A stretch of 58,326 nt of DNA, filler included, from Catajapyx aquilonaris (lineage: Eukaryota): the NCBI GenBank assembly GCA_000934665.2. It is 3 parts of 3 records of this genome, joined end to end, with 100 filler letters (N's around TTAATTAATTAA, not from the genome) between each part and the next. Parts side by side here need not be neighbours in the genome. Positions count along the whole stretch, not along the records: positions 38,984 to 58,326 come from JYFJ02006478.1; 2 more parts are not named here. One strand, given 5' to 3'. How positions within the stretch are numbered: the first letter of the stretch is position 1; each line of letters starts with the position of its first letter. Shown here piece after piece: positions 34,381 to 58,326 of the stretch. Under the pieces are notes generated by a model, which was not told the origin of the DNA, did not search any database, and saw only the letters and a list, made by a program, of their open reading frames with translations. Both the position numbers and the translations under genes were made by a program.

Positions 34381-34867
34381 TAGTTTGACCCAAACCCACT
34401 TAACACGTCACCAAAGGCGATAAAAAATCATCGCTTCTAAATATTTTAATCGCTCCCTTCTCCATACAGACAAGAAAACTGGGTTTGAAATATGAGCCCA
34501 TGTCTTTTCTCGAGAGGTTTTTTAGTCGTTGGTTGTCGATACGTGTGTCGCGTAGAATCGACAGGCGTGTCACCTCAGCACGTCGACGGGAGGCTACTTG
34601 CTAGGGTAAGGTTGGAGACTCATATTTCAAGGCGTGTTAAGGCAAGTTGTCCGATAGCCAGATGAGATAGAACCGGCTTCGCTTTTATGGCGGCACCAGG
34701 GAAAGACTGGGTCTCGCTTTACAAGGAAGAAAAGCAGGTGTAGTTGCCGCGTCTGGGTTATTGGCACGTATTTCATCTGGTCGATAAGTGGAGGCTATCA
34801 AGGTGCTTCAGGGTAGAGGGTAAACGGCCGGAGTTACCCGGATAAAAACAAGCGGTCTCTGAAAATG

Positions 34868-36834: not shown

Positions 36835-37165
36835 AACATATGAGTGGGTTAACAGCTTCGAAGGTGGCGCGTCAAGTTTGCAGCAAAATCAACTCAATGC
36901 TGATCCTTTTCTTTGACATTTTAGGAATTGTGCATATGGAGTTTCTCTCTCCTGGTAAAACTGTCAACGGCAAGTATCAGGGCCTACTGGGATGGTTTGA
37001 GACGATTTAGGCTCAAATGGCCGGAGATGTGGAAGAACATATAGACTGGTTGCTGCACCATATGGCAATGCCGCCTGCACACACCTCACGCGTAGTCAGG
37101 GACTTCCTGATAAAAAATAACATGACCACTGTTCCCCACCCTGCATATTCGTTTGTCCTGGCCAA
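36835..37165 (+). mobile_element. Mariner transposase fragment (frameshifted)
   Basis: SKINSMLILFFDILGIVHMEFLSPGKTVNGKY and WLLHH...PAHTSRVVRDFL..NNMTTVPHPAYS. Confidence 0.9.
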
Positions 37166-37340: not shown

Positions 37341-37412
37341 AAATGGTGCCGGGGATCGAACCCGGGACCTTTCACATGCAAAGCGAACGCTCTACCACTG
37401 AGATACACCCCC
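37341..37412 (-). pseudogene. tRNA-Ala(TGC) pseudogene
   Basis: GGGGGTGTATCTCAGTGGTAGAGCGTTCGCTTTGCATGTGAAAGGTCCCGGGTTCGATCCCCGGCACC; intact anticodon and T arms, D-stem mismatch, broken acceptor stem (ends CACCATTT). Confidence 0.85.
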
Positions 37413-38983: not shown

Positions 38984-41044
38984 ATTTTTCTTTGCGCCAT
39001 TGATAAGAGGACACAAAACTGCGTAACATATGTTTTTTTCATAAAATTCTCATTGAGTGACTCTAGCTTCATTTCCACCTCAAGCCATTTCAGGACAATA
39101 TAATAGTCATCATATACGCACGTATTTGGACAGATCACATGTGAATTCCTCTGCCTGGTTTTACATTTTCTCAATCAGAATTTGGTTGGTACCTCAGGTA
39201 GGGCATTCCATTGAACCTCTCCTGCGACTCATATGAGGGCATCATCCCACATAATGGTGTCAGAATCATAACTAAGAGGTCTGACATGTCATGATTGAAC
39301 TCTGGTATTACTTACATTGCCCGCAATTTTGCAAGCTCGAAATATTTGAACCTAAACGTACATTGTGTTAGTTTATCAAGTCAACTATAATAATGTTGTT
39401 ACAAAGTTAATGTATGTCAGATAGTGTATCAAATAAACATAGAAAAATATCAATTCTTCGGCCTGTAATTTCTTTGCAGGGCTCCTTTTTGTCCAGCAGT
39501 CCAGTGAAATAATCATGACTGGAATGTCGTCAACCTTGATCAGGCATCTTCGTACGTGGCTTCCTGAGCAGGAGGAAATGCATTCTCCTCACTCCGCCAC
39601 CGTCGGGATCTTCGCTCCACTGTTGTGCTGTCTTGCCTGGAGAGACTGTTCTTGTAGTCGCTGGGATTCATAATTGCGTGGGATGTAACACTGGATGTCG
39701 TTCGTCTGCGTTGATTAATGTGCATTCTCTATGATCAAAGAAAAGAGGATGAATATCAGTGGTCCAACTGCAATTCTGACTTTCCTGAGTCACAATTTTT
39801 CACAATTATTTACGAAGAAGCAAGTACTGAAAAATATGGTTTCTTCCAACCTTCTGTGCCACATGGTATGAAGTGTAGCACACCAGTTCACAAGTCCCCT
39901 TCTGTAATTAACATCCAACTCGAAACACCTTGGTCACAATGATCTTGACAGACAATTTGGTCCGATTATGCGAAGATGCTCAAAAAGAGTTACTGGAAGG
40001 TGCTCGATGATATTCAGGAAAATGCATCATTTTAATGAACGACGTAAATCCGGTGCAATAGTTAATATATACAGACCCGAGAAGTTGAGTAGGTCCTATT
40101 TACAATATAGGTGTGTTCAAATTGCAGTTATCAGATCGTGTTACATTTTTTGCGATTGGCCGAAGGATGGATTAAGTAGTGTGCACTGTTGAAGTTGTGT
40201 ATTGCCCGACTGCAAATGAACGTAGTCGGCCCAGATATATATTCCGGGATGATCATTCGCTCAGGTATGTCAGGTATGTCAAATTCATCATGACTCCCGG
40301 TTTCCTGATACTCAAATGTCTGAATAAGAATTCGTGGCTCATAAATATGATGTATTTAATGCTCATGATTAGATGTGAAAAGTTTACAGCAAAATCTGCG
40401 TTTCAAGTCGATTTAAGAAATAGCTGGTTCCCAGTCAGGTCCTTGCATTTTCAACAAGTTCTTCATGGTGTTGCGTAGATGGATAACCACTGTTGTTGTG
40501 ACCTGTTTTAATGATCTTCGTAAACATTGCCTTTTGATTTCGTAGCAGTTCAAGATTTCAGCATGTACAATTGCATTGTCTTCTCTGCCAGTTTCGGCGG
40601 TTTATATCTTCATTTACATCGAGCTGCCTGTTGATGTGTCTGATGCAAGCCAGAACCTGCCTGAAGATAATGCTCTGAAAAAACGGCGTCAGGGTCAGGA
40701 CTGAGCTCTCAGGACAGTGGTCCTCATATCACCGTCAGACATTATGACCTGATTTCTTGCCAGTGTGAACAAATTTCAAATGAAAATTCACGGTATCCTT
40801 CCGACCAAATTTCTTAGTGCAATGCATATTTACATAACATATGCAGCGTAACAATTAAAGAACATTACGTGGTGGATGACCATGAACGGTCATATTTAAA
40901 TATTTCAGATTGAGGAAAGAATAATAATTCAGAATAAAACTTGATGATGATTATAAAACTTCCTCTTGACCTGTCTTCGCGTCTTCGTCATCGCCTTGGG
41001 CATTTTATTGTGGGACACCTCGAAAAGTAGCTATGGTCGGATTC

Positions 41045-41370
41045 AAATGGTACTAAAAAGAGGACAACTGCATCCCTCATGTGGTTTTCCATTTCCGGTT
41101 CAATATTGACGGTCTGGTCGTTTACGTGCAGCCATTCATTTCCCTCTCGTACCATGACGGTGTAGAGTCCACGTATCAAGCAGTTTCCATAGTGAAAAAG
41201 TATTGCTGTGCAGACAAACCTCCTCGATCGTCAGGATCGAATCCAGAGATATCAGTATACAACTTTCGTAAGTTTTGTAGGCAGCTTAAAGTCCGCTTAC
41301 GCGAATCGACACACATGGCGTTGGCATAGCAAGACACATTATTCGGGCCAGGCGAAGCCACTAATCTTCG
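41045..41370 (-). pseudogene. Ubiquitin-specific protease (USP/C19) domain remnant
   Basis: Cys box ISGFA / PNNVSCYANA (frameshifted) and His box AILFHYGNCLIRGLYTVMVREGNEWLHVNDQTV...AVVLFL. Confidence 0.75.
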
Positions 41371-43436
41371 TGTCATTGCTAATAGAAGGTGAAATGAGAC
41401 GCTTCCAGGCCGGTACAGGCAGGGGAGGTATGGAGCTAGAGAAGCTTGCGGATTGTGACTCCGCCCTTGAGTGTTCCGTCCCTTTTAGCCTGGGATACAC
41501 GACTTGGAATACGTCGCCTCTGGGTAGATGTTGCATAATGCTGTTGCCACGTAGTGGTTTGCTTCACAAGAGGCTGGACGCTCATGGTACTTGTCGTTAT
41601 AGTCCAGCAGCATCATACTCGTTATTGTCACGTTGCTTGGCAAGTGTACCTCCTTCATGTAGCTTTCTTCTTATTATGATACAGAAGTACTGTACAAGAT
41701 GTCCGTCTAAATGGAGGTTGAGTTGTCCCTCTTTCGTCCCCTTTTGTTGTGACCACTACTACAAGAAGAAAAGTTGCATATATGATCTTGTCATTTCGAA
41801 AGTGAAATTCTCACTGGCCAATGGTCGTCACTTTATGATCCATTGCTCGTGAAGTCGCAGTTCAACCAAACATTACTTAGCCATAAGTTAACAGTTAATG
41901 TAGAGCTAGACACATTTATTGCCTTAGGATAATATATACTTGCTTGATTCAAATTAGATGGTTAGATTTTTCAAGTAAGGAACTGTATCGTTAAACCAAT
42001 ATTGTTTCAAATGCTAAAAGCACAAATCTGTTCTGCGTCTATGCATGAATTGTCAGTGTATTTATTTCCTCTCTTGAGATATCTCATTGCAGAATGAAGT
42101 AGACCCTACCGGTTTATAATCCAGAAAAAGTATTGTTGGGTGAAGATCTTTCTGTCTGGTATAAATTTCATGATGTACGTCTGTGCCAATTGTACGTTTT
42201 CCAAAAGTGACACTCGTCGTAACTCGTTTTTTGTTCAGGGTGATGCACTTTAAAGGGGTGTTAAGGGCTGACCAGCCAGTGCGGCTCGAGAGCCTCTCGT
42301 ACCCGGTTTATTAACCAAGATACCAAGATACAAGCAAGGTACAAAATCACAAACAAAATACAATATTACAAACAAGATACAGTATTACAAAATATTATCT
42401 TCACTCCAACGTCCCCGTCACATCCTCACAGTTGCCCTACTCCAGTTAGCTGTTCATCTCAGCCAGGACTGAGATCACATGCAGACAGAAGATGTTGAAA
42501 GCCTCCCACATCTCTTGCACCTTAGAGTATTCAAAGTGCAGGGCCAACCAAATCCTCTTGCGACCACGGCTGGACGGAGACACGTATATCAACTTATAAC
42601 TGTGCTTTTATAACTGTGCTAGGACGTTCGGGGAGATTTGTGAGCCCAGTCAAAGAAGGCCAGTTATGATCATCATCTTCAGTGCTGCTCTTGTAGGATT
42701 TGGATTTTGAACCACCTCGGTGAACAGATATGTTTTGATTGTCTTCATGTGCAGTTCCTTCTGGTAATGAAAGATGTTCGCCGACATGAAAGTATGTCCT
42801 CGCTAGAAGTGTCGGGAGTTCGATTTTCTCACCCGACAATTCACAGGAGTTCACGATGTGAACGAGATTTTTGCTTTGTCCGCTGCAGTCGTCTGCCCAC
42901 TCTTTATTACTCCTTTATGGGCAGAAAAAAACGAATGGAAATCACTTACGATATCTCATTTCTTCCTGCCAGAAAGTCCTTCATGCCATAATCTGGATTC
43001 CCATAGGCTGCAGTCACAACAGGAACAGCGGTGCTGTCCGACTGGGTACACGTAGCTAAAGTTGCTACGTCTGGATTCCCATAGGCTGCGGTACGACTGG
43101 GTAGTCGTCAGAAGGTCCGGACTGGATACTCGTACCCACTATGTGAAGAGGCATCTATAATTGTTTTGTCCGCTGCAATGGTCCACTTAGATAGTTAATA
43201 ACTTTTTTTCATGGCCAGGGAAAACGTATGGAAGACATGTATGTCTTTTTTTCCTGCCATACGACAGCGTAAGGCTGTTACCACCTTGTGGTTTGCATTT
43301 CCAGTGTCATACTCGTTATTGTCACGTTGCTTTGCAGGTGTACCTCCTTCACGGGGCGTTCTCTAGTCTTCAATACGATACACAGGTACTGGACAAAATG
43401 TCCGTCTTCGTTGTTCGAGTTGTCCCTGGTGTATCT

Positions 43437-43760
43437 CAGGCTGAAATATCTGTTTCGCGGCATGACCCCAGAGTCAATTGGAACTCTGGTTTTGTTTGCC
43501 CAGTACCAATGCATTATTAAATATGTTCCCAAATAAAACATTTATTATGGGAATAAAAATTTCTCCCCAGGCAGGACATCGTGACATTGATCCCAACAAA
43601 CCTATTCTTAATCTCCTCAGGGGCGGTGTTAATGGATTTCCCGGTGTCGCTTGTCGTCATCACAGTTGTCATTTCCGCAATAAGGGCAAACATTGGGTCG
43701 GGCACATATCTCATGAAATATTCAATTGGCCTATGATTCCCAAGTTTGGGAGAATGATCC
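43437..43760 (-). mobile_element. piggyBac transposase N-terminal fragment
   Basis: PIEYFMRYVPDPMFALIAEMT..SINTAPEEIK.FVGINVTMSCLG and YWANKTRVPIDSGVMPRNRYFSLR. Confidence 0.9.
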
Positions 43761-44149
43761 GAATGCACTTTAGCCTTCTCCCTTCCTGTCATGTCGCCGT
43801 CTTCAGCATCATAGAAGAAATGAAACTTACACACTAAAGCAATGCCTCCTGCTCCATAACTTCTGATGGGGATCGCCTTTTGTCGCCCTGATTCTCGATC
43901 ACTTTTTGTATCTTCAATTTTATTCGTTGTCACAGGATGGTGTGAATTAGGATAGGTCAAGGACTTTCTCAGGTTTAGGAAAGTACAACGTGGTTAGGAG
44001 ATTAATGCAGAGGAAGCAATATATTTAAAGTTCATCTAGTTCAACATCTTCAGTGTATTGATCGTACTGTACATTCTTTCCATGCCCAATATCAAAGTAC
44101 ATTAAATCCCGCATAAACATGTGTCTTGACTGTCTTCTTAACTTATTAT

Positions 44150-44212
44150 CAGTCCATGCTTTGTAACAAAATTATTGGCAAACAAATGGTTTCTCTCCTG
44201 TGTGCGTGTTGT
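44150..44212 (-). pseudogene. C2H2 zinc-finger linker remnant
   Basis: Minus strand reads THTGEKPFVCQ*FC. Confidence 0.55.
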
Positions 44213-44559
44213 TTATTTTTGTTTTGTTTTTTTGGTTCTCCTCTGGATGTCCACCATCTGACCACCTGAAAGACGTGTGCTGGATATGTGAGCATTGTGC
44301 ATGGTGTAACCTTAATCTATAAGACTCATTTGCCATTCAGGAAATGTATAGAAGTACCTCATTCACTTAGCAAATTATGGCTTTATTGGCATATAGGGGG
44401 ACAGGAGGGAAAAATCAAGGCAACACATTCCATGTAAATGGGCACCCCAAAAGTCAGTAGCTGTAATATTATCTTACACAGGATGAGTGAAAAAGTAGTC
44501 AATATGGACATGTTTTGGCACCCTCTAACATCGGGCCTCAGACAAGCTCTGCAGGGGCC

Positions 44560-44928
44560 TGAGTTGCTGCCGTTGCCTCTCTTTTTCCTTCCCCCTTCCC
44601 TGTCGATTGCTCCTGCCAGGAACTTTCCCACATGCCGTCGTATGCCTTTTATGGTCACCTCATTTTTCAGCTAGACTGCAGCTGAAATTTCCAAAAATAA
44701 ATCACATTCACATTCTGGTAATTGTATAAACTGTGCCAGATTAAGAAATACATTACCTATATGATGACTTTTGACAATTAGAGGCCGTCAAAAGATCTCT
44801 TTTTCTTCGGCCCAAAACAGCTGAATTTTGTCGCCATCTCGTTTGATGTACTGTTTTGCATCAGGATGCCGTGAATCTGGCGTTGCAGCGAATCGCCTTT
44901 GGATGTCATTTCCCCCAAATGCTTTGCC
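44560..44928 (-). pseudogene. Spliced DUF4806-like gene remnant (probable transposon accessory gene)
   Basis: Exon ~44928-44757 (SNEMATKFSCFGPKKKRSFDGL*LSKVII) with AG/GT sites, next exon IRRHVGKFLAGAIDREGGRKKR. Confidence 0.7.
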
Positions 44929-45082
44929 TGGAATAAAAGAACCTTTCAGTATGATACAGTACCGGTATATTATACAACTTACAGGCTGTAATTATACTGT
45001 ATAAAAGTGGAAGTTTGTGTTCATGTGGGGAGGAAGGTGTCATAGGAGCTATGTCACACAGCAAATGGGCATGAATAAGTTA

Positions 45083-45250
45083 CAGTAGAACCCCGATTAT
45101 CTGTCACTGGGACATGGTCGGAACACAAAAAAGATCAGCATAATAAGAGGAGAAAAAACGTTAATGAAACACACCGACATATAAAAACATTAAATACCAT
45201 ATTATGATTTTCTAACAGAATGAAGTGTTTTGCATACACAGTCTACTGTA
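45083..45250. mobile_element. pogo/Tigger-type terminal fragment
   Basis: TA|CAGTAGAACCCCGATTATC terminus. Confidence 0.55.
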
Positions 45251-45529
45251 CTGTATTAAATTTTACAATCTAACTTAAGGCAACACAAAACAAAAATAAT
45301 GTCCATATTTAAGGTACGATAATTATACTGCAGAATTAATGTTTTTATCAAAAGAAAGACATTTACAATTTTATTTGCGGTTCCAGTGTCCGCCAAGCAA
45401 CTTTCCGTATCTTTCAATTCTTCATCAGTTGACACTGGAAGTTTCCAGTCTTCCTCCAGACTGGGGAATGCTCTCTTGTGGCTGTTATGCCACCATCATT
45501 CCTTGGCGCTTCAATTTAGCTACTTCATT

Positions 45530-45800
45530 CTGTGTCCTCTCGGCTGTGCGCGCCCTCGCGAGTATCCGCATAACAAATGAGCCGGGTAACAGCAGCAGGA
45601 AGGTCCTTCACGTAATGAAGAAGGCAAAATGCAATCTCCCGTGAACCTCTGCTGGCAACTGCCTCATTCCTGAAATACATATTGGCTCTGTCACTACCCA
45701 TATCATGCACTCCAAAATGGTAACAACTCACTTGTCGGCAATAGTAGACCTCATTAGTGCTGAGCTTCGGAATAGTTATCTCTTCCTTCCCCGTGCACGT
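45530..45800 (-). mobile_element. Sola1-type transposase fragment
   Basis: IPKLSTNEVYYCRQVSCYHFGVHDM...NEAVASRGSREIAFCL...LICYAD. Confidence 0.85.
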
Positions 45801-46009
45801 TGCTGCACCTCTGCCACAGCCATATTTCCATCCAAGCACCCATGGTGGTTACTTGTGTCTTCTTCTGCTGGCACTGGGCAAACCTCCTCCACTTGACGGT
45901 CTTGTCGCTTGCGAGGATTTGCCTTTCGTCTTGTATGCTAGGAAATAGTACAGTCATTATGCAGTTATAATATTATTATTCAGCCGAACTGGTCAGACCG
46001 ACATTGAAT

Positions 46010-46153
46010 GGGGTCATGCAGACGGGCCAAGCTTGGCCGCCGCCCTGGCCAACTTCCAGGAAGTTGGGCCGTGGCGTTGCCTGGGGGCCCCTAGGTGTGA
46101 ACTGTCGCGGCCGCGGCCAGCCGCGGCTAAGCTTGGCCCGTCTGCATGGCCCC
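46010..46153. mobile_element. PIF/Harbinger-type MITE
   Basis: TIRs GGGGTCATGCAGACGGGCCAAGCTT / AAGCTTGGCCCGTCTGCATGGCCCC; AAT TSD. Confidence 0.9.
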
Positions 46154-46309
46154 AATTGGGTGGAACTTTTGAGTACCTGGAATTGCCACAATCTGACAGA
46201 ACTGATGTGCTAGCTGTTGTTCATTTTCCATGTACTCTCCTTGTGTAAAGTATGTAAAGTGCATGGTCCTGGAAAGGTCCGGCTTTCCCCACATTCATAG
46301 AGTTGAAAA

Positions 46310-46550
46310 GGCGGGTACCATGATCTGATTTTGGTATGGCATTTGTAGACTTGTCTTTGCTGCCTCCAGTTCCCCATACCCCCCATCACATGGGCTTTTA
46401 ATGTGAGCTTTAGCTGCAAAATGCCATTCTGCTTCACTTCCAAAATAAATTTTGTGCCTGCAAGGTTCAGAAAGTTCTTTGTATTTCCTATATTGGGTAG
46501 CTGAGCCATCCGAAAAAAATAATAATAATTTTGAAATCTTCAGTTCATAG
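46310..46550 (-). mobile_element. Sola2-type transposase fragment
   Basis: FFSDGSATQY...EAEWHFAAKAHIKSPCDG...SLQMPYQNQI. Confidence 0.85.
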
Positions 46551-48249
46551 TTAAAAGAAATGGAGATGAAAATGAAGTGAAAGAGAGTGGACACATCTTC
46601 ACCCATCACAACCTTCATCTTCTTTACACCCTTCACAATCTGATGTGATCAGGATTCCTTCTACTGATGTATAATGAGCAGTGAATCCCTACAAGCCAAC
46701 TGGTCGGGTTTATACTTTATCAGAAGGAGAAAAGAAGGAGATTGCAGAGGTCACTATAAACACTTCCACGACTGCAAAAAAATCCATAGTGCTGAGTTTG
46801 CATCACTCCAGCATATAATAATCAAATACTAGGCAAGTTAATTTTTGGGGTAAGTTAATGAAGCAAGTGGTTTTTTTTTCTTGCAAATTGTATTGAATTT
46901 TTTTAGTTGCCATATATTATGAATTAAATATTTCTTAGGAGACTACTGGTAATGACTCAGTTAGATTCGGCTAATAAGCCAGAGTTTTGTGCTAAGCTAT
47001 ATAGATCTGGTATGTTGGCTATTTCTCCACATATTTGAAACCTGTACCCTCTGATCACATTAAAATCCCAAAATGAAACTCGGGGATGTGCAACAGGACA
47101 GTGCAAAATAATTTTGTGAAAAAAAAAAAAAAACTCTGACTGTTTTCAAAATACCTTTAAAATGAGACATTTTCCAGGGCTGTATCTCATCTGGTTTCCG
47201 AGAAAATGGTACTTGACTATTTCAGGAAACAGCAAATTGTAATGAAAATTTGAGTCATTAATATTTAATAACTTTTGATTCAGTTGAGCAGATGCCTTAC
47301 CTGCAGCTGTCTGGCCATTTTCGCAGGATTTTCGCCGGCAAGATCATGGGGTTGAGTCATCATACGCATATCCTACAATACCTTTCTCGATTTCCCAGAA
47401 GTTTCTTCATGTAACAATGAATCTGAGACCTCGTGTCTACTGGGAACATATTCCGACCCAATACTTGAAGACACGTCCTCTTCTGACTCAACTTGCTCAG
47501 AGGAATCCCCCATATGTCCACTCTTACCAGGAACTGTGTCACATCCCGACGTCATTGACGTCCCTGGATGTCGGGCTACAAGCCCTCCTGACCTGGAGTA
47601 CTCACCTACGGCCTGCAATGCAAAGGGGGAGAGCCCCCCAAACCACAAGTGACCAGAACAAGGTTCCAACTCCAAGTGTCTTTATTCCTCTTCCCCTCAC
47701 CACCCCCAGCCCATGCGGGCTGGAGGACAATACAGTGTTGCCATGTCACGGCCTGTGACAACTGCACTGTCCGAGGCGGCCATTGTGGCTTACACCACTT
47801 TGGCTGTAAGAGCCACGGTGTTATGCAGCAAGGATCCAACCAACAGAAGTGTGATTGTCCAGAAAGTACAGTTAAGTTTATGGTTCATATTATTCATAAA
47901 GGCCTCAGCGTAGAACATAGGTATCATTACAACTTAAATGAAGGTGTTTGAGAAATATAGGACCATTCTAGTTGGTAACGGTAAACCCCTGAAATGTGGG
48001 TTGGTTCTCTTTTGCTTAATGCGTAAACCCCTATTTGAGGGTTGGTTCTCATTTGTTTAATGTTACATGTCTGGGAGTCATATTACTAACCATGTCAATA
48101 GTATTGCAGACACCATACAGTATTCCTTTAAATGTGCTTCAGTACTCTTAGTAACACTGTACGGTTAAACATCATTATAATCATTATCGTCCTCGTCGTT
48201 GCAGCCAGCAAAATCCTGTAGTAGATCCTCAGCATCCGCTGCGGGTCTG

Positions 48250-48910
48250 GTACGTAATACCTACGGTCATAATACAGACGGCCCTTAATGTCGACAGCCT
48301 TCTTTCCTAAAACCTAAAATCATGACACCTCCAAATTACGACACACTTAAATATCTAATGCACCTACACACCTCTACAACCTTAAGTTTATTACCACTTC
48401 TCAAATACACCTTTTGCCCTTATTAACTATCCTTCAGCAATATCTCCTTCTCCTGTTTTCGACACCACCAGAATACCTTATTATCCCTTCCCTTCTTTAT
48501 TACCTACTATGACATTTTGCCTTTCCTTATTCACTTCCCTTTACTCTTTTTCCCCCCATTTTTAACCTCACATATGCATATTGTATGCCATCGCTTTCGA
48601 CACGTTCGACGGGTTTCCTTTCTGTCCTTCGATGCGTCTTCGTCTGTCTCGTAATTCCGGCCGCGTCGATATTATTTTCATTTGTTATTTCTACTTTGTC
48701 GGATACATTGTTTGCAGGTATTTCTGCTGTGTCGTTCGTATTTTTTTCCATTTTTCTGCTTCATCTGTATTATTTTTGTTCGGTATTTCTACATTGTCGG
48801 TTATTCCCATTTGGGATTTTTTCTGGTGTCGTTATTCTGTCCCTTCGTTATTTATCCTATCAGTATTTATGACCGTCTGTATTCCTTCCGTACAGGCATT
48901 ACGCCTGGAC
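48250..48910 (-). mobile_element. 3' end of a Gypsy-like LTR retrotransposon (pol tail, PPT, partial LTR)
   Basis: Minus-strand RRTERKPVER tail, purine tract AAAATGGGGGGAAAAAGAG, then TGTCATAG at ~48514. Confidence 0.55.
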
Positions 48911-49029
48911 CGCATTTATTGTTTGTGTGTGTACTGCAAATATTATATATTTTTTTGCCTGCCATTAGAGCCATGCAATTAAATCTTACCAGTACTTTGG
49001 TCCACAAATCTGGTAGTACTTATAGTTAC

Positions 49030-49823
49030 CTTCAATGTCTTGAATGAAATCGTAGCAGAAACTTAATGTTTCTGACTCGAGTTGATACCGCGTACTGCCC
49101 TCCTCTGCTCTGCACACGAGAAAAAGATTATTCATTACTTGTGCTGTTAGCTTCTGCTTCTCTCCACAGAACATAGGTTTCCATGCAGATAGATATGTTT
49201 TCATGCTGTCCATTAATCCAAAGGCAGCAAGGCCATCTGAAGACCTGCACAACATTTGTGAGTTCCAGGAAATATTAGTCATTCTATTGTAGTGCTAGAG
49301 CATACCGGTATCACATTAAATCACCATACTGTTTTTTTGCATCTTGCAATCTTGTCACACTAAAAAAACTTCACAATATCATGAATCAAAACCACCCTGG
49401 ACTCCATTGTGGCTGGTCGGAGGCATCCTGCCACTTCCAGCAAGGTCTCATTCATCGACATGACATCCAACAGTTCTTGTTGGGAGGATGCTTCCTCTAT
49501 CTGTAAATATGAGCGCAAGACATTCAAGCCTATACTATCTCTGCGTGTGTTGGTGTACGGTATTAATTAATTTTAATGTAGTCAACTGAATTGGAAATTT
49601 AATTACGCAATGTAGGAACAAGCCTAGTAGGGAAACCAAAGAGATGTACACACCTGTGAGATGAACTCAATGACTCCCTCAGATTGGATGGCTTCCTTAC
49701 ATGCAGTGTACTCCCTTGCAATGAGCCAATGGTACAAGTGTGGTGAAAGAAAATGTGGTGATGGTCCACCATGGACTATGGACATGGCTAAACCAGCAGC
49801 ATAATATTCCTTGCTCCCAATTG
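49030..49823 (-). pseudogene. G2E3-like HECT E3 ligase fragment, three exons (49823-49654, 49500-49330, 49244-49030)
   Basis: YYAAGLAMSIVHGGPSPHFLSPHLY; DGLAAFGLMD...PMFC...LTAQVMNNLF...EEGSTRYQLESETLSFCYDFIQDIE; canonical AG/GT sites; in-frame stop in the middle exon. Confidence 0.85.
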
Positions 49824-50499
49824 CTGATGAAAGACGAGTAACGTCAGTCATTGGGAAACTGTGAAATTCCCATAAAGAGTCTTTAATTACATCGTTTCCT
49901 AACCTCGACCGTTTCGTGCAAGGGTCACGTGACCTCCCTTGCCCTTGTGACCTTGCGGTGATACGAAGAGTACAACTTGAGCTGCTTAAGAGTGGTGCTT
50001 TATTCAGTCGTAGTTCAGAGGTACCAAGGCGAAAGGAGTAAAGGATATCAGGGGAAGGTGAAGGGTATGTTCAGCCCCGGGATATTGTCCCAGAAGACTG
50101 GCCTCGTTTACAAAAGTCAGCTGGCTTATATAGGGGTAGACGGCAAAGGATCATGTGGGATTGGATACATCGGTTTGCTGAGGATCACGGGTAGTGATGA
50201 CATGCGTTATCACCACAAAGTTGGCGGTCCGCCACAAAAGTGCACTCGTGTCCAAAAGACAATGCTGTCACACATCCCACCGATCAGATCCTGGCCTGAC
50301 AGGAAGACAATGAGTATAGGTAACACCATGATAGCACCATTTCACCTAAACTCAAAATGTGTGGCATAGGTTGAATGGGTTGATATTCAACTTACGACGC
50401 TCTGGGTTCCCTCCTCTTCCCACCAGGACATCTATCCTGGCCTGACAGGAAGACAATGAGTATCGGTAACACCATGATAGCACCATTTCACCTAAACTC

Positions 50500-50810
50500 A
50501 AAATAATAAACATATTCTTTCCCAGTTACCATGCTACAAACATGTAATGGAGGATGGTCATGAACTGTGTAGCACGGTATCCACACCCAGTTAGTGCCAC
50601 TTTTATACGACATGCGACACACTTCATAACCTTGAACATGATCACTAAATCCTACTGTTTTCAACTTACATACTAAAACAGAAAGCTCCCTTAATTTAGT
50701 CACATAAAGAATATGCACAATTCCAAATACGGGCATCACCACATCTTCGATCATTGTAACAACTACACCTGGTTTAAATATACTACCATAAAGTTCCACC
50801 TTGTTTGGGA
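50500..50810 (-). mobile_element. C-terminal fragment of an animal EnSpm/CMC-type transposase
   Basis: YGSIFKPGVVV...MPVFGIV..LYV...TVGFSDHVQGYEV...HPPLH...YV pattern. Confidence 0.7.
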
Positions 50811-51986
50811 AAAAATGAGACCCCCATCCTCCTCGAGGAGATCAAGAGAATCTTTCCCAGTCGGGCGGTTCCTTATTCGCTGGAAGGGAACAAAAATGGT
50901 TGTGATGACTCAAGATAGGGTAAAACAGCTTTAAATACTTCTGCATGACCGGCAATTTGTCAAAATAATGGGATGTAATGACGTCACAGATTGTATGTTA
51001 CTTCATTGTTGTTCATAAATTTGGGGGGAGGGGGAAATTCTGAAGCTTTTCATTTGAATATCCTGCAGTGTTGCTACCATTGCATCATCTACTGGCGTTT
51101 GCAGGGAAGACAATCTGTGGAACAGAAGTTTGTGATGCAGACTTGGCAGTCCCTTCCTTTATCTTCCTTTCGGTAAGCTCAGGCCATGTTGTGACGCTAG
51201 GTTCTGCTTCCCAACGACCACAATAGGTAACAAGAGTAGGAACGTAAGGTGTTGTGTGAACGAACCTACTCTGCCCTAGTCCGGGCTTCCGGCGACTCAA
51301 TAAGTCGTGAGGGGGAAGCTCTTCTGTAATGATCGAGTCCGATAATCCGGGCGGCGCGAGCCTGCTGGCCCAGACATCATTCTCTTACCTTATTGTGTAT
51401 GTTCAGGCGGCGCAGCCTGCTGGCCCAACCATGACACTCGTGAGTATTATTAACAGAAGTTAAGTGGGAATTGCCTAATCAGTGTAATTAGTCGGATTGG
51501 ATACGCCGCCGGGTAACCTGCGAGTATCTAATAAGCCAGAAATTGTTATTTAAAAACTCACAGGTCCTGCTCCCTGCTGATTCTCTGATTCCGTGACATC
51601 GAGTTTCTGGCTTCGGTATGTGATTGTACCCTGTTGATGCGAAGGGAAACAAGAAGAAATCCTGTAATCATGAAATATTGGAAACTCATCCAAATACGCG
51701 TATGCCATCCACCGCGTCGGATTGAAAACGGCGGACAAACCCGCCTTGGGCCGAAAATAACGGGTACATAGCTTCTTAAATAACAGCTACATTCCAGACC
51801 AATAACAGTTATCCCAATATGCACACCGATCTCGGTTACATCTACCTCAACCATTAAGACGTGCACCAGCGGTAATAATATGACAGCTTTTCGAGCATGA
51901 TCACAAGTTGTGGTCACTCTTAACCTTTTGTTCACAGCCACTTTTTTATTTTATTTTTTCTAGTGCCCGTGCCTTTCCCTCTCCAC

Positions 51987-54680
51987 CATAACACAGATGG
52001 ACCGGCAGGGGGTGGCAAAGTCTAGATTAAGTCTACCAGGTCAGCCACTGAGCGGGACGAAAACGCATCTCTCCCGCGCACGTACGTCACTCGGTGCATG
52101 GCGCGCTCTCCCTCTCGTAACGTGTGATTTGGCACGGCTCGCATGCTTTTCATCATTTTTCGAGACGGTAAATGTCGCAATGATTAATATCATGTAATTC
52201 CCAAACAGTTTATTGTATACAGTACATTAGTACATAACATAGTCTACAAATCAAGGCATAAGCCCACATCATTTAGCGACCTTACGCATCTTGCGCCACT
52301 TCTTCCGGGTCTTCAAGTACCTCATGCAGACATTGAGATGCCTCAGTGGAAAAAAAAAGTTCTGCATTTCACAAAGTACATGATCACAGGTTCAGGGACA
52401 TATCATATGGGACATGCTTTTTCATCACTAGACATAAACCATTAAAGCAGTTGACACCAGTGCGCAATGTCTTTCCGTGATACACCAAAAATAAATCGTT
52501 CGTTGCTCGCAAATGACACAAAAACTCATCGCTTGGCTTCCGCAGACCGCCCTTGCTCGCATACGATGTCCACGATGTCTTGTCTCCAGCCTCGCAAACA
52601 AAACCTAATTCAGGAAACCTTTTTTAACATTTCCTTGCTATTGCACCACCCAAATAAGCCAACCCTTCTGCTCTGTTCATTTTCTTTGACACTTTCAGAA
52701 GCCAAAACTGGCCAGTAATTCACCAGATAAGCAGTTGTAGCCCTGCTGGCCTTCCTCAACATTAATTTGTTGGACATCCAACACCTAGACAATCGTGTGT
52801 AACATGAAAAGTTGTAATTTTTTTCTGACACAAGCTCCGGTGTGTTTTGCCAAAAAAAAAAAAATCCTTAGCCTGTTTTTGAATTCTACTGGATTTGGAT
52901 GTTCATGTGTTCTTCCCATCTGCCGCACACATGCAAATAAATGCTCTAGGGCGTCTTGGTTTAAATTGTGAGTCGTGATGTACCGTACTTCAGGCCATAC
53001 TTCTCCCTTAACATGGTAAATAAACCCATTTAAGTGACCTACAAGTGACTATAAAGCCTTTCTGAAAAGGATACACTTTACCATCGACACGCATGCTATT
53101 CATTAGAGATATAATGTCCTGCAGAACTACCAGTTGGTATTCATCTGCAGTGTAACGGTTTCTGTATCGCTTACGTGTATCCCAGCGTACACGGGAATTT
53201 AATATGTCAAACCATTTGTCTTGAAGTTCAACGACAGTGGCAGTTTCGTCCCGGTTCGTGCATTCCAGTAATTTGTTATTTCCAAAGAATTTAATTGCTT
53301 TGGCGACAGTCTCAGACAGTAACTTCACAGCCCACTTTACCCTCTGCCTTTCATATTATGTATGTGCAAGTAAGCTCAGCCACCTTTTGGCGATTTATGG
53401 ACACAATTATTATGTATGTGCAAGTAAGCTCAGCCACCACAAGGTTATGCAATCACCCCCTCCCCCCCTGCCTTTCATATCCTTTCACAGTAAGTAAATG
53501 ATGAGTAAGTCTAAAGGCAATAGCCAGGTCGTTATCTGTACTTTTCTCCAAGATTTCTTGCATGGCATCACTGTTTACAAGCTCTTTGTTGGACAATCGA
53601 TAACCGTAATCCAGAAAGTTGTTTCTGGCTAATTTTAGTAAGTGTGGGGCATCAGCAAACACATATATGTCTCTGTCAGAACAAACTGGGTTTTGAAAAT
53701 AATGCTTGTTAATACTGATTCCAAGGGAGTTCCAAAACGATAGGTTTTGCCCGCCCATGTCAGAAACCATAGCTACGCACGGAAAGTCGATGGACTCTTA
53801 GACTCTGAATGATATTGAAGATAATTTATTTTTCCATTTTGAAGTCATACGAGAAAAATACCGGCTGCTTCCAACTCCCACACAAACCCCTTGCCATAAC
53901 TACTTGCACATATTTGTGGGGTGGGTACACGCAACAGGTTTTTTTGTCAAATGACCAAGCTTCTTCTACCTTCATTTCATCAAAAGAAGGACAGTAAAAC
54001 GACTATTTGGAGGCATATCCTTCCCCTTCGCTTGCATGAAATGCAAAATAGAATGCAAAATCCCTGGTTCGCAATTAACTTTGGCAACCCAAGCTTTAAG
54101 TGTAGAGAGGCACGGAAGGGGGAAGTTCATTTTGCTTCTCAAATATCTGTAGGCTTTGACACTTATACTTCGTAGAGCAAGTGCAACGCCTAGATCCTCC
54201 TCTGTCCATTTTCGGGGTCTGCGCTTTGTAACCAGGACATCTATTTGTGTCTCAGTAAAGTATGGTCGAAGAATTTTCCTAACTTCCTTGGCCACTTGTA
54301 CTTTAGATGGACATCGCTTCAGTAATTTAATTTCTGACGTTAAGTTTGAGTTGAGGCTCCTAAGGTCTGCATTTGATACCAAAAGCTCATCTTTTTCTCG
54401 ATTGAGAGTCTCCACCTGCCTCTGCAACTCGCGAATTTTTTCTTCGTAATCCACCGTGTCCATTTGCGGTGGCATATATTCACATTCTTCTGATGGGCAG
54501 GTCGTCGATTCTTCCTTGGATTCTTCATCCCTCAGTATTTCAGAGGCGATATTTTTATATTCCCTTTTGTGACGTCTCGCGACTCTCGCCTCTCTTTTCC
54601 TACTGGGTTCTTTCTCGTCTGCAAAATATGAATTTTGTATAATAATAATTTTAGGTACTTGTACAGCTATCAAGGAACTA
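51987..54680 (-). mobile_element. P-element-family transposon, frameshifted transposase
   Basis: KWTEEDLGVALALRSISVKAYRYLR..FPLPCLSTL, FDEMK, WKQPVF, VSDMGGQN, FADAPHLLKLARNNFLD, DKWFDILNSR, PFQKG, LNQDALEHLFACVR; putative CAT terminus at 51987; splice acceptor at ~54620. Confidence 0.95.
53357..53467 (-). mobile_element. Short retroposed insertion inside the P transposase
   Basis: 13-bp TSD CTGCCTTTCATAT; internal ~30-bp duplication. Confidence 0.8.
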
Positions 54681-54959
54681 TTTTGCTATTTTACAAACTT
54701 TGATACCATTGCACAGCCTACCTAATGACTGAGGAAGTTTCAAGTAAGTGAAATCAACATAATAATATTGAAATGTGAATAGGGCCCCACATCCCTATTT
54801 ACATTTCAATGTTTGGACCAACCCCCGCCGACAGCAAACACCGCAGCTAGTGTACGAGGCATGCTGTCGACGAGGGTTTGGAGGTAGTCCCTGCCCCCTT
54901 GGAGCCTGGTCCACTCTTCCTGGGTGGGTTCCCACAGTTGGCCCCCGATTTGCTAACCT

Positions 54960-55350
54960 CCCCCGTCGTCTTGAGAGCCGATACTTCAGTTGACTCCAGA
55001 GATGCTCGATGTGGTTCAGATCAGCACCATTCGGAGGCCACTCTAGGAACATCATAGCAGGGTTTCTTTCCACCGTCCAATTTTGGTAACTTTCTACTCG
55101 ACGAGAACAAAATCATGAATGTTATGCCGTTGCGTGATAATTATGATAAGCACGTTGTAAAATTGTGCAATTGTTTATAAAAGTACTGCATTGCAAGTGA
55201 AGCTCAGTGTTCAATAACAAGGTTTGTTTCTCAACAGAAAATTTGCCGCAGCATGCAAGGCGGGCACGCTTGTGTGCCTCTGTCAATTCAGCCGTCCGGC
55301 TGGGCAGGCGGGCCTCAACTAACCTTCTCCTGACGGTGTGCACCGACACC
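54960..55350 (-). mobile_element. Tc1 transposase fragments
   Basis: VSVHTVRRRLVEA...LTEAHKRARL and LEWPPNGADLNHIEHLWSQLK. Confidence 0.9.
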
Positions 55351-55376
55351 CTCTTAGGGGGTTGGGATACCACCTT

Positions 55377-55384
55377 TATTATTA

Positions 55385-55461
<77 letters not shown>
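55377..55461. repeat. (TTA)n microsatellite
   Basis: Direct observation. Confidence 0.95.
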
Positions 55462-55464
<3 letters not shown>

Positions 55465-56179
55465 CTTCCTCTGAAACCAACGTCTGTGTCTATTCATTAC
55501 AATTTTCACTGGTTTCGGCTTAGGGCCTAATTATAATAATGCCTCATCGCAGAGTCTGGCAATGAATCGCCTGAAAACTGAGTTAATAAGTGAACCCAGA
55601 TCACTTCAGGAGACATGCATCTGCATCGCCTCACCTCACATCTATAAAGAAGAAAAGCTGTCTAGTGTCCGAAATTAAGCTTCATTGCTATAATTAAAAC
55701 TCATATTGTTCTACCATAATTAGATGGATATCTGGGGAGTGCCGTGGTTCACTTTATAAAACCTGTGCCATGAAAAAATCACAACGTCGAAGCAGCCAAA
55801 TTCTATCCTTTATTTTAGGTAATGCAGTTCCACTAAATCCGCACACACATTTTGTTACCACATATTCTGTGAATGAAAATCGGGGCTCGAGGATCAAGAG
55901 TGCATAACGAGGTAAATAAAAATGGATTCGGAGATACCTTGGCTTTGCCGATTGATTGTAAGAGACTAAGAGTGCCAGCAATAAGTAGGTAGGGAAAAAT
56001 AAGTAATAATGACACTTTCTATAAACAGGAACATTATACAGCAACGCAAAGCACAAGCGAAATACATATTGTCAATGGGACACACGGTAAAGACGGGAAC
56101 AACGACGCTGTGACACTTTTGAACCAAACCCGTCATTGCAGAGAAGTCCGCCGGGTTCTGGATCATCTCCGAGAGGGTT

Positions 56180-56720
56180 ATCTGATGTGGTACCTGTCTA
56201 TCGACAAGGCAACTGCTGCGAAGATCATGGGCTTCTTAGTCAGGGAAAACTCAGTGAGGTCCAATTCCTTCCTGATTTCAGGAGCCATTAGTCTAGGCAC
56301 TTCTGCTCCCATCTGGCTGATTTCAGCGATTTGTTGGTCCTCCAGTGGTGTAGTCAGTCTCGGTCGACCACATCTGAAATTCATGCACATTGTTACTTAT
56401 TACAATGTTCAATCATAAGCCATTAAACATAATATCCTCTCAATGCTACTTTTTATTTAGACCTATATCCCTGCCAATCTATTGCGTTATTATTTGTTAT
56501 TAATGACAGCAACTTTTTATTTACATTAGCTACTGCTATAAAAATCCGTCTCACCTTCCTTTATAATTTGGCGTGACAGCTGCTTTCGTGGCCTCATCTT
56601 CATCCCCTACATCATCGGGCATAGCAAAATATATCTGGCTAATTTTGCCCACCGCAGCCTTACTTACCATGAGACACTTAGCAACTTTAGCCAAAGATAA
56701 TCCTTCCTTCCTCAATTCTA
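56180..56720 (-). mobile_element. Tc1 transposase N-terminal HTH fragments
   Basis: LRKEGLSLAKVAKCLMVSKAAVGKI and GRPRLTTPLEDQQI. Confidence 0.8.
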
Positions 56721-56834
56721 GACGTCATGAACAGGAATATAAGACTCATTAAACTGATTAAAGCAAATAACATTAGACATCACTAGAGAACGGATTTCTA
56801 GATTTTAACCTACTTATTATGTAGACAGAACACC

Positions 56835-57350
56835 GGAACCAACACGTTGGCCAGTTGCAGATTAAGGGCCGTAGCCCAGGTCAAGACCGCCGAGCCGCGG
56901 TCCGAGTCTCTGTAGTCCCCCCAGAGGGTCAACCGTGCATTAAAGTCGCCGAGTACATGCGCCCTGCGGGAGGACCCCCGCCAGTACCTCATCAAGTCGA
57001 CGCAACCCGTCCGCTATCCTGCGGCCAGGATTAAGGTAGACATTGACCAGAGTCAACTCCATCTCGCCACTGCCTATGGAATGAGTCTGAGAGGGAGGTT
57101 AGGTTAACCACCCTCGTAGCCCTGTCATAAACCACGATGGCCACCTTATCCCCCTCGACCCCATCGATTTAGCATGTGCCTGAGGCTTAAGATGTGCGGC
57201 TCCTGTAGACACAAGACGTCGAGTTTCTGTGCAGCGCCCCACTCTATGGCTTGGTTAATGGCCACTGATCCCTTCCCCGCGTTGAAATGGGCCACCCTTA
57301 ATCCGGAACCCGCCCAGTGAACTCCGGGGACGTGATCACTGCGAGCCATA
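56835..57350 (-). mobile_element. Non-LTR retrotransposon AP-endonuclease fragment (R1 group)
   Basis: LRVAHFNAGK...DVLCLQEP and VLGDFNARLTLWG...DRG. Confidence 0.9.
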
Positions 57351-57419
57351 ATCGATCCGTTTAACCAGCTGACCCCTCCGTCGCAGCCACTGGGGACATG
57401 ACCCCGGGATCTACTTTGA

Positions 57420-58326
57420 TCCCCAGTTGTCCTGGAAGTCACATGTCCTGAGAGCAGCGGCTAAGGTCCGGAGGGTGGGGTCTGGTTTGTGGCGGGTGGC
57501 GGGCAAGGCTTGGTGTTTGTCCCCACGAAGTAGACGCGTCATCATACTCCGTGCGATTCTGCCAATGTTGTACTTTGGGGCTGAGGTGTGGGGTGGATGC
57601 AGTCGGCTTACAAAGGTTGCCCCGCAGTTGCGGGCGGCGCTTCGGCCCTTCCTTTTGTCCCTTACGAGGGCACATCGAACGACGTCCTATGAATGTCTGT
57701 TCGTCCTGGGGGGCATTGTTCCCCCGGACATTCGGGCCTTTTCCATGTGGGAGGCGCGGAGGGATCTGCTGGTGTCGCCGGAGGTGGCCCCGCCTGCTTA
57801 TCGGCAGTTGGGATAAAAAATAAAAAAATAAAAAAACACACATTTTGTTCAGTTAACGTTGGGGGTGGGGTGGCCTTGCCTGCCCTCCCCTACAACGTCA
57901 CAGGTGCTTGGCGCAGTATAGCCATTGCTGCTGTTGCGCCATTAAACCATTAATCAATCAATCAATCAATCGGCAGTTGGGAAGCGTTCCTCCCTGGGGA
58001 TGGGTCCGGGTGGAGCTGGAGACGTGGATGGGGATGCCCGTAGGGGTGGATCTCCTATTGTACACGGATGGGTCCCTGACTCGGGGAGTGAACGCGGGGG
58101 GAGCTGTGGTTGGCATGAACAGCGACGATCGGGTGCTGTTGTGTGAGAGGCATGCCTTCGATGGCTCGGTGGAGATTTATGATGTTGAGCTCCGCATGAT
58201 CGTTCGGGCTATGGAGATTGTGGGCGAGCGTGCCTCTGAAGGCGAGGTCACGTGGGTCGTATCCGATTCGTTGTCTGCTCTGCAGGCCATCAGCAATCCC
58301 CGCGCTTATGACGACACAGTACGATA
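57420..58326 (+). mobile_element. Non-LTR retrotransposon RT C-terminus plus RNase H (R1/LOA/Tad1 group); runs off the window
   Basis: LSWKSHV...ILPMLYFGAEVW...RAHRTTSYECLFVLGGIVPPDI; RNase H YTDGS...YDVEL...SDSLSALQAI. Confidence 0.92.
57814..57968 (+). mobile_element. 5'-truncated LINE 3' tail (I/Nimb-like) inserted in the R1-group element
   Basis: 14-bp TSD ATCGGCAGTTGGGA; hairpin GGCGCA...TGCGCC, ATTAAA, (AATC)n tail. Confidence 0.8.

Follow-up and report, generated by a model that had tools for sequence, protein, structure and literature searches.

Does a stretch of DNA in which nearly all recognisable transposon remnants point the same way serve as a source of piRNAs, or does it hold transposable element (TE) debris that is co-oriented for other reasons? 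The question is raised by a contig of Catajapyx aquilonaris (JYFJ02006478.1), the last of three that are joined by N44-TTAATTAATTAA-N44 spacers in the 58,326-nucleotide stretch of DNA that was analysed (the window). This contig, contig 3, occupies positions 38984-58326 (19,343 bases) and is open at both ends. A preliminary description had placed all 13 of its coding remnants, apart from those at the right end, on the minus strand and had proposed a flamenco-like piRNA cluster. The reading preferred here, to which we would give about an even chance, is that contig 3 is ordinary repeat-rich DNA with co-oriented TE debris and no demonstrated function.

Composition of contig 3

All stop-to-stop ORFs of at least 35 aa in contig 3 (n=321; 164 plus, 157 minus) were compared with Pfam, both strands being treated alike, at cut-offs of E<=0.01 for the first 300 ORFs and E<=0.001 for the last 21. 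A relaxed Pfam scan (E<=2) covered 97 of the 118 ORFs of at least 62 aa; the other 21 lie between 52.8 and 57.0 kb and are all included in the E<=0.01 scan. Targeted searches, made for the HECT remnant and for the ORF previously called 'Sola', were confined to the minus strand and are hence not strand-symmetric. The features are as follows.

40991-41230, minus: C-terminal (His-box) remnant of a USP/UCH domain (Pfam UCH, E=1.5e-4, profile 201-253/254)
41608-41668 and 43302-43362, unstranded: 61-nt repeat unit, two copies, 87% alike, same orientation (repeat search)
43520-43993, minus: probably a piggyBac-type transposase, N-terminal piece (Pfam DDE_Tnp_1_7, E=0.071, profile 2-53/349)
44187-44201, minus: C2H2 zinc-finger linker THTGEKPF, then a broken finger (six-frame regex)
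46009-46154, unstranded: hairpin, 35-nt arms 91% complementary and 76 nt apart, foldback or MITE-like (repeat search)
46298-46648, minus: transposase-like ORF, formerly 'Sola' (ESM Atlas lead only)
48262-48892, unstranded: MITE-like unit, 28-nt inverted ends, 75% complementary (repeat search)
49031-50070, minus: HECT domain of G2E3 type, surviving as a decayed remnant (phmmer relatives and tblastn)
50288-50504, unstranded: 71-nt stretch duplicated locally, the copies 99% alike and 146 nt apart (repeat search)
50491-50841, minus: 117-aa ORF, probably the EnSpm/CMC piece of the preliminary description (translation read)
52387-54685, minus: P-element (THAP9-like) transposase (Pfam domains at 52788-54685 and tblastn; C-terminal part, 52387-52623, by eye only)
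54798-55388, minus: Tc1-type transposase remnant (Pfam DDE_3 at 54798-55112, HTH_Tnp_Tc3_2 at 55125-55388)
55376-55461, unstranded: (TTA)28 microsatellite separating the Tc1 pieces (Tandem Repeats Finder)
56181-56396, minus: putative Tc1 N-terminal piece, CGRPRLTTPLEDQQIAEIS (regex and translation)
56813-57460, minus: AP-type endonuclease of a non-LTR retrotransposon, N-terminal part (Pfam Exo_endo_phos_2, 6e-6, at 56813-57013)
57373-58324, plus: C-terminal region of a non-LTR reverse transcriptase (RT) with RNase H (Pfam RNase_H, E=0.065, and RVT_3, E=0.12, at 57857-58324)

For the P element, four collinear domains on the minus strand (Tnp_P_element, 5.6e-7; RNaseH_N, 2.1e-5; GBD, 2.9e-10; RNaseH_C, 3.4e-7) and a tblastn alignment with a relative, P0002 (54544-53071, E=1e-92, 39-45% identity), carry 4 stops in 458 aligned codons, and the P pieces read as one nearly full-length transposase copy. 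The copy is probably truncated; the repeat search found no inverted pair bracketing 52.4-54.7 kb that could serve as its terminal inverted repeats. The Tc1 remnant lies immediately beyond it. Both of its Pfam matches (DDE_3, 4.1e-5, profile 98-136/146; HTH_Tnp_Tc3_2, 3.7e-4) score under the curated cut-offs, at 23.9 bits against 28.6 and 21.1 bits against 31.5 respectively, and since the HTH directly adjoins the end of the DDE domain, of which only DDE_3 98-136 is present, an internal deletion appears to have removed the catalytic core. The motif CGRPRLTTPLEDQQIAEIS, which we take to be the N-terminal motif of Tc1, lies at 56181-56396; this piece had no Pfam match in either scan and, judged by eye, it and the remnant at 54798-55388 are probably one Tc1 copy split by ~0.7 kb.

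Two remnants are of host gene type. The USP remnant can be followed by eye upstream to ~41500, and the longest ORF of contig 3 (41196-41849, plus, 218 aa), which has no match in Pfam or the PDB, lies antisense to it. The HECT remnant keeps to a single frame, and 14 of the 361 codons in its read-through translation are in-frame stops, so it is not a working gene. Its own ORF gave no direct Pfam HECT match in the scans at E<=0.01 and E<=2; a phmmer search of 1.84 billion representatives found 14 relatives at E<=1e-3, the best at 1.8e-6. Pfam HECT is present in 6 of these 14 and the combination of PHD and HECT in one, and those that are named are fish G2E3-like proteins. The relatives' matches were placed by tblastn at 49845-49031 on the minus strand.

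The minus-strand LINE endonuclease includes the motif 'LCLQEP' at 57197-57214 (by eye and regex). The plus-strand LINE piece, the only plus remnant, runs off the contig end, and the thumb of its RT was read by eye. An RNase H identity is suggested for this piece by the Pfam matches in the list, although its ORF at 57857-58324 retrieved neither homologous proteins nor a PDB match. The clade names R1 and I, previously given to the LINE pieces, found no Pfam match, and the R1 endonuclease was not returned when the PDB was searched by phmmer.

The remaining pieces are identified more tentatively. The stretch at 43520-43993 is a probable piggyBac piece on the strength of a faint relaxed-scan match, with no match at E<=0.01 and nothing relevant from PDB phmmer. 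No TGE[KR]P match other than the linker THTGEKPF occurs in any of the six frames across the window, and this linker has no Pfam zf-C2H2 match. For the ORF at 46298-46648, which had no Pfam match at E<=2 and retrieved no homologous proteins, 23 of 30 ESM Atlas feature matches fall on clusters where PF25273 (DUF7869) is present in 10-12% of the members, with a score of 0.92 and 189-197 shared features; this is a lead only. In the relaxed scan (E<=2) the ORF at 50491-50841 gave only the noise matches NeuB and ChaC and none to a TE family. Four further names, DUF4806, a second Sola, a Gypsy tail and EnSpm/CMC, were confirmed by no tool and had no match in either Pfam scan, although to our knowledge Pfam holds no Sola model and its silence is weak evidence on Sola. 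No Gypsy/ERV domain (RVT_1, rve, gag, protease or env) was found in the 321 ORFs.

Orientation of the remnants

All 11 Pfam-positive ORFs of contig 3 lie on the minus strand. Eight of these are TE- or gene-type matches at E<1e-3, while the other three (DUF2087, zn-ribbon_14 and DUF4668; E 0.004-0.009) look like noise. The 11 reduce to four units, namely the USP, one P element, one Tc1 and the LINE endonuclease. To these the relaxed scan added the piggyBac match (minus), a further P piece and the RNase_H/RVT_3 match (plus). Of the minus-strand remnants previously claimed, the four units are thus upheld by Pfam and the HECT by its relatives, while the piggyBac, the C2H2 linker and the DUF7869-like piece are less secure.

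The preliminary description gave a binomial p of about 0.007 for 13 against 2, and recomputation returns a two-sided value of 0.0074. Counted as independent units the ratio of minus to plus is 4:0 for the firm units (two-sided p=0.125), 5:0 once the HECT is included (p=0.06), 8:1 if the tentative pieces are counted too (p=0.04) and 12:1 if every piece claimed is granted (p=0.003). All of these values are nominal and stand before multiple testing, the contig having been picked among many scanned contigs. The statistical support rests on four to five firmly established independent units, and the orientation bias of this short, unplaced contig is real but statistically modest.

Origin of the co-orientation

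On the preferred reading contig 3 would be an old accumulation zone of truncated, mainly cut-and-paste copies (P, Tc1, probably piggyBac, and an unassigned transposase-like piece), which would also hold two fragments of multi-copy genes of host type, both decayed (the USP and the G2E3-type HECT), and a LINE at its right end. Co-orientation might then have three sources: the fact that few of the insertions are truly independent (four to five firm, twelve at most), the orientation preferences of transposons inserting into transposons or into long transcription units, and the choice of this contig from very many scanned. The second of these has a precedent in human intergenic DNA, where several family pairs nest in the same sense ~2-2.6 times more often (PMC2836564, Table 3). 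A 50:50 null is consequently too strict for TE nests, and when the probability of same-sense nesting is set at 0.7 even 12 of 13 co-oriented pieces has p=0.064. The pairs for which this bias is documented there are human Alu, L1, ERVL and MuDR pairs, as opposed to arthropod P, Tc1 and piggyBac (PMC2836564).

The condition of the fragments is in keeping with debris. They are truncated and lack terminal inverted repeats in the repeat search, the HECT is heavily decayed, and Gypsy/ERV domains are absent from the ORFs. Strand-based cluster calls are, moreover, reported from FlaHMM to yield more false positives on fragmented contigs (PMC11400887). Against this reading, the bias is consistent across all strand-symmetric evidence, with every Pfam-positive ORF on the minus strand even though 164 of the 321 ORFs are plus. 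In 17 of 19 1-kb windows of contig 3 the plus strand is poor in purines, compared with 10 of 19 in each of the neighbouring contigs; the ~0.6 kb inside the MITE-like unit at 48262-48892 is strongly purine-rich on the minus strand (purine skew -0.27 in that 1-kb window). A ratio of 12:1 would also be hard to reach by chance if the unconfirmed pieces were real and independent, and a content of at least seven superfamilies within 18 kb, nearly free of SINEs, is classic for a piRNA cluster. No tRNA-like match was found in contig 3 and two were found in contig 2. Taken with the truncation and decay that are observed, the remnants and their strand would not need a dedicated piRNA function to explain them.

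Comparison with piRNA clusters

The strongest competitor of co-oriented debris is a unistrand, flamenco-like cluster, which we consider unlikely. A plus-strand precursor would here give rise to piRNAs antisense to the embedded transposons, and selection would keep antisense insertions. The more specific proposal, that such a cluster in a large-genome arthropod archives mainly DNA transposons (P, Tc1, piggyBac and DUF7869-like) together with USP and G2E3-type HECT fragments rather than Gypsy endogenous retroviruses, is likewise unlikely. piRNA clusters are defined by small RNAs, which are dense, 24-31 nt long, 1U-biased and uniquely mapping, and piRNA action needs complementarity to live copies. 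The HECT remnant, which by a rough estimate has diverged by ~0.3 substitutions per site, would be too diverged to yield piRNAs complementary to live copies, and so heavy a decay suggests that complementarity to active elements may be poor.

In layout contig 3 resembles flamenco and the flamenco-like clusters of Drosophila, as both consist of dense truncated fragments of several families in nearly one orientation with an opposite piece at one end (PMC10643416, PMC11400887). Every firmly identified remnant of contig 3 is truncated and co-oriented, and the co-orientation holds for the firm and the more inclusive unit counts alike. If plus is the transcribed strand, the position of the sole opposite piece at one end (57.4-58.3 kb) fits the account that clusters tolerate sense insertions towards their 3' end (PMC10643416), and strand-based prediction is reported to work in Drosophila (TPR 0.80, FPR 0.011 per bin; PMC11400887). 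However, the strand bias of the Drosophila clusters is described as driven exclusively by Gypsy (PMC10643416), and the Gypsy/ERV enrichment described for them was not found in the 321 ORFs of contig 3, which holds mostly DNA transposons and pseudogene-like pieces of USP and HECT. The Drosophila clusters, as described, have a discrete promoter, a long, spliced precursor from one strand and one-strand piRNAs, and they span 227-1085 kb (PMC10643416) as against the 19 kb visible here. Contig 3, open at both ends, is thus about a tenth as long as the known flamenco-like clusters. With only four to five firm independent units the case is further weakened. A flamenco-like unidirectional cluster described in Aedes aegypti indicates that one-strand clusters exist beyond Drosophila in a repeat-rich arthropod genome, although that cluster was defined by transcription derived from EVEs and by small RNAs (PMC7161354), and no viral remnant is seen in contig 3.

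Introns and composite elements

A giant intron, or another long plus-strand host transcription unit, would have lost its sense TEs to selection against the terminators and splice sites that they bring, leaving the antisense copies, and would make a piRNA function unnecessary. This we regard as unlikely. Intronic TEs usually show a modest orientation bias, which is most marked in LINEs and LTR elements, whereas the co-oriented pieces here are mainly DNA transposons, and with an antisense probability of 0.6 the value for 12 of 13 is p=0.013. The Pfam scans revealed neither an exon nor a protein domain on the plus strand of contig 3, although 19 kb without an intact gene is compatible with an intron. 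An antisense bias opposite to long transcripts is established in mammals, where it concerns mainly retroelements (PMC3517506, PMC1794541, PMC3088655); contig 3, by comparison, has no visible host exon.

It is very improbable that the pieces are parts of one or two large units copied as a block, such as an element with gene and transposase fragments captured in one orientation or a decayed USP-HECT tandem array, for although P0011, a 513-aa protein related to the HECT remnant, and P0019, from the cluster of P0011, combine a UCH domain with a HECT-like region, so that USP and HECT may belong to one gene family unit, the HECT (50.07-49.03 kb) lies upstream of the USP (41.5-41.0 kb) on the minus strand, the reverse of the UCH-then-HECT order of P0011, with the piggyBac, C2H2 and other pieces between them, the UCH part of P0011 does not match the USP piece (BLASTP E=0.25; tblastn none at E<1), no terminal repeats bracket the region, and no look-alike stretch was found among the other scanned windows.

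Implications

Contig 3 is mainly useful as a candidate locus in a genome-wide test, given small-RNA data and a contiguous assembly. If small RNAs were to prove a cluster here, it would be a one-strand, DNA-transposon-based piRNA cluster in a non-model arthropod. Such a cluster would carry the flamenco principle over to another target class, possibly including selfish gene families, and would bear on whether the flamenco design is general or is bound to retrovirus-like elements.

Distribution of coding remnants

The three contigs of the window (contig 1, 1-19352; contig 2, 19453-38883; contig 3, 38984-58326) are separated by spacers of the form N44-TTAATTAATTAA-N44, and the orientation of contig 3, which has 19,343 bases, is arbitrary. 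Both strands of contig 3 together hold 321 stop-to-stop open reading frames (ORFs) with 35 aa or more, and every one was scanned against Pfam, with a cut-off of E<=0.01 for the first 300 and E<=0.001 for the last 21. The plus strand carries 164 of these ORFs (10,313 aa) and the minus strand 157 (9,766 aa), and all 11 that were Pfam-positive lie on the minus strand. Eight of the 11 were judged meaningful; matches to DUF2087, zn-ribbon_14 and DUF4668 (E 0.004-0.009) look like noise. Of the 118 ORFs with 62 aa or more, 97 went through a relaxed scan (E<=2), the other 21, at 52.8-57.0 kb, having already been scanned at E<=0.01. The sole plus-strand addition of the relaxed scan, amid chance-level rows on both strands, was an RNase_H/RVT_3 match. 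When 38984-45583 was searched as six whole frames with X at stops, no Pfam family was found and the UCH match was also lost. The preliminary description had placed 13 remnants on the minus strand and two on the plus; the nearly exclusive minus orientation is borne out by the Pfam-positive ORFs, with support for fewer pieces than had been stated.

Coding features of contig 3 and the evidence for each
40991-41230, minus, UCH (Pfam 1.5e-4)
43520-43993, minus, DDE_Tnp_1_7 (piggyBac), profile 2-53 (relaxed scan, E=0.071)
44187-44201, minus, C2H2 linker (by eye and regex)
52788-53048, minus, TNP-like RNaseH_C (Pfam 3.4e-7)
53011-53355, minus, TNP-like GBD (Pfam 2.9e-10)
53456-53797, minus, further P piece (relaxed scan, E=0.19)
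53829-54002, minus, TNP-like RNaseH_N (Pfam 2.1e-5)
53975-54685, minus, Tnp_P_element (Pfam 5.6e-7)
54798-55112, minus, DDE_3 (Pfam 4.1e-5)
55125-55388, minus, HTH_Tnp_Tc3_2 (Pfam 3.7e-4)
~56358, minus, Tc1 N-terminus (by eye and regex)
56813-57013, minus, Exo_endo_phos_2 (Pfam 6e-6)
57197-57214, minus, endonuclease N-terminus 'LCLQEP' (by eye and regex)
57373-57813, plus, RT thumb (by eye and regex)
57857-58324, plus, RNase_H and RVT_3 (relaxed scan, E=0.065 and 0.12)

The eight meaningful matches of contig 3 compare with none at E<=1e-3 in contig 1 and one in contig 2, a mariner Transposase_1 (36837-37007, plus), among 259 ORFs of at least 54 aa (in two sets of 129 and 130; in the second set one ORF was shortened and one dropped for an N at 27936). 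Contig 3 is much richer in identifiable coding remnants than contigs 1 and 2, so that it was rightly called a graveyard of fragments from autonomous elements, DNA transposons for the most part. With 0 and 1 Pfam matches, contigs 1 and 2 were unusable as a control for strand bias. Two tRNA-like sequences are present in contig 2, a weak Ser-GCT (22570-22642, plus) and an Ala-TGC (37341-37412, minus), compared with none in contig 3. In contig 2, A also outweighs T very strongly on the plus strand over 4 kb (32001-36000; skew +0.24 to +0.26).

Coding sense strands tend to be purine-rich. Along contig 3, 17 of the 19 1-kb windows are purine-poor on the plus strand (mean skew -0.054); in contigs 1 and 2 the figure is 10 of 19 each. 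The pattern is consistent with minus-sense coding debris over the full length of contig 3, also where no domain can be recognised. As a proxy the skew is imperfect: the final windows of contig 3 are negative too, though the LINE there is on the plus strand, and the most extreme value (-0.27 in a 1-kb window) belongs to a non-coding, purine-rich, MITE-like unit at 48262-48892. This unit, of ~630 bp, has 28-nt inverted ends and an interior that is extremely purine-rich on the minus strand.

Identity and decay of the remnants

A targeted follow-up took minus-strand ORFs only and is therefore not strand-symmetric. The HECT remnant (frame 50070-48986, minus) is coherent over 361 codons with 14 in-frame stops. 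A phmmer search with X read-through against 1.84 billion representatives found 14 relatives at E<=1e-3 (best 1.8e-6), six of them with Pfam HECT, and tblastn placed all the relatives' matches at 49845-49031 on the minus strand, so that the HECT assignment was upheld. One of the 14 combines PHD-like fingers with HECT, which is the G2E3 architecture, and in another, P0011, a UCH domain precedes a HECT-like region. Eight relatives were looked up and six were named, all six from ray-finned fishes and mostly as 'G2/M phase-specific E3 ubiquitin-protein ligase-like'. The ESM Atlas gave no support for HECT, its best score for the ORF (0.82) being to unrelated families. The USP assignment on the minus strand was likewise confirmed, by Pfam UCH. 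P0011 and its cluster mate P0019 sit on short fish contigs. Because these proteins join UCH to a HECT-like region, USP and the G2E3-type HECT may together be a single gene unit that is present in multiple copies and perhaps mobile. This hints at a single gene family; against it, the order of the two on the minus strand is the reverse of that in P0011, and the USP piece has no match to P0011. Both are host-type rather than transposon sequences.

The P element on the minus strand was corroborated by four Pfam P domains and by tblastn with P0002 (439 aa, 41% identity), the single relative of the P ORF in a homologous-protein search of longer proteins. The P0002 match runs from 54544 to 53071, with 458 aligned codons and four stops. 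It joins the four Pfam pieces into one copy, which by eye extends to 52387. In the same search of longer proteins neither the 'Sola' ORF (46298-46648, minus) nor the RNase H ORF found a match. The ESM Atlas lead for the 'Sola' ORF (score 0.92) was to clusters with DUF7869 in 10-12% of members. A phmmer search of the PDB with the HECT, piggyBac, longest plus, endonuclease and RNase H ORFs gave chance-level rows or none. The C2H2 linker, Tc1 N-terminus, endonuclease N-terminus and RT thumb were named by motifs that we take to be characteristic of them. For the LINE pieces that had been assigned to R1 and I, the endonuclease stands and RNase H is weak, with the clade names unsupported; DUF4806, a second Sola, a Gypsy tail and EnSpm/CMC found support from no tool.

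A repeat search found no inverted-repeat pairs bracketing any large element of contig 3, and the large elements are therefore truncated fragments. Stop codons make up ~0.9% of the P copy and ~3.9% of the HECT remnant, from which we infer roughly 0.07 and 0.3 substitutions per site, respectively. Within otherwise old debris, two 71-nt copies (50288-50504), 99% identical and 146 nt apart, are a very recent local duplication. A near-perfect hairpin (46009-46154; 35-nt arms, 91% complementary, 76-nt loop) lies in a GC-rich patch with frames open on both strands. A 61-nt repeat, probably a short interspersed repeat, occurs twice in the same orientation (41608-41668 and 43302-43362, 87% alike), and both copies translate on the minus strand to include 'AKQRDNNEYD'.

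Number of independent events

The P pieces represent one insertion. The two Tc1 pieces, which carry neighbouring segments of a single HTH domain and lie ~0.7 kb apart with a (TTA)28 microsatellite in between, are probably one copy. At 57.37-57.46 kb (57373-57460) the LINE endonuclease (minus) and RT/RNase H (plus) abut head to head, their ORFs overlapping by ~90 bases. They stem either from one event, an inversion inside a single insertion, or from two, a LINE having inserted into a second LINE. Under twin priming the inverted piece should reach the RT region adjoining the direct piece; here the inverted endonuclease piece (57.4 kb) is only ~0.65 kb and falls short of the RT region, and this origin was not favoured.

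Two-sided binomial tests of unit counts, minus:plus (nominal p-values, contig 3 having been picked from many scanned contigs)
Symmetric scan only, 4:0, p=0.125
Adding HECT, 5:0, p=0.06
Adding piggyBac, C2H2, the DUF7869-like piece and the plus-strand LINE, 8:1, p=0.04
Every piece of the preliminary description granted, 12:1, p=0.003

The original calculation for 13:2 is arithmetically correct (p=0.0074 on recomputation). The direction of the bias is real, and the number of independent units behind it is smaller than that count.

Explanations for the co-orientation

We regard it as evenly balanced whether contig 3 is ordinary co-oriented transposon debris. Same-sense nesting and intronic antisense bias are both known routes to co-orientation that do not involve piRNAs. 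For several family pairs tabulated in one study, transposons nested in transposons lie in the same sense about twice as often (PMC2836564, Table 3). If the chance of a same-sense insertion is set at 0.7, p is 0.20 for 8 of 9 and 0.064 for 12 of 13.

Small RNAs are the defining feature of a piRNA cluster. That contig 3 is a unistrand cluster of the flamenco type, as was proposed, is in our estimation unlikely. Flam and flam-like clusters of Drosophila are described as spanning 227-1085 kb, with discrete promoters and piRNAs from one strand, and Gypsy elements as the exclusive driver of their strand bias (PMC10643416). Contig 3 shares the co-orientation, and its sole opposite-strand piece lies at one end, as at the 3' ends described for flam-like clusters (PMC10643416), but the Gypsy content that marks those clusters was not found among the 321 ORFs scanned. 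Strand-based prediction by FlaHMM is likewise described as dependent on Gypsy coverage, with false positives commoner on fragmented contigs (PMC11400887).

Slightly less likely again is that contig 3 lies within a giant intron, or within some other long unit transcribed from the plus strand, an explanation that draws on the antisense bias described for intronic transposons (PMC3517506, PMC1794541, PMC3088655). A single composite unit is very improbable, as neither bracketing repeats in contig 3 nor a look-alike stretch in the other scanned windows was found. Were contig 3 a true piRNA cluster, DNA transposons would be an unusual diet for such a cluster.
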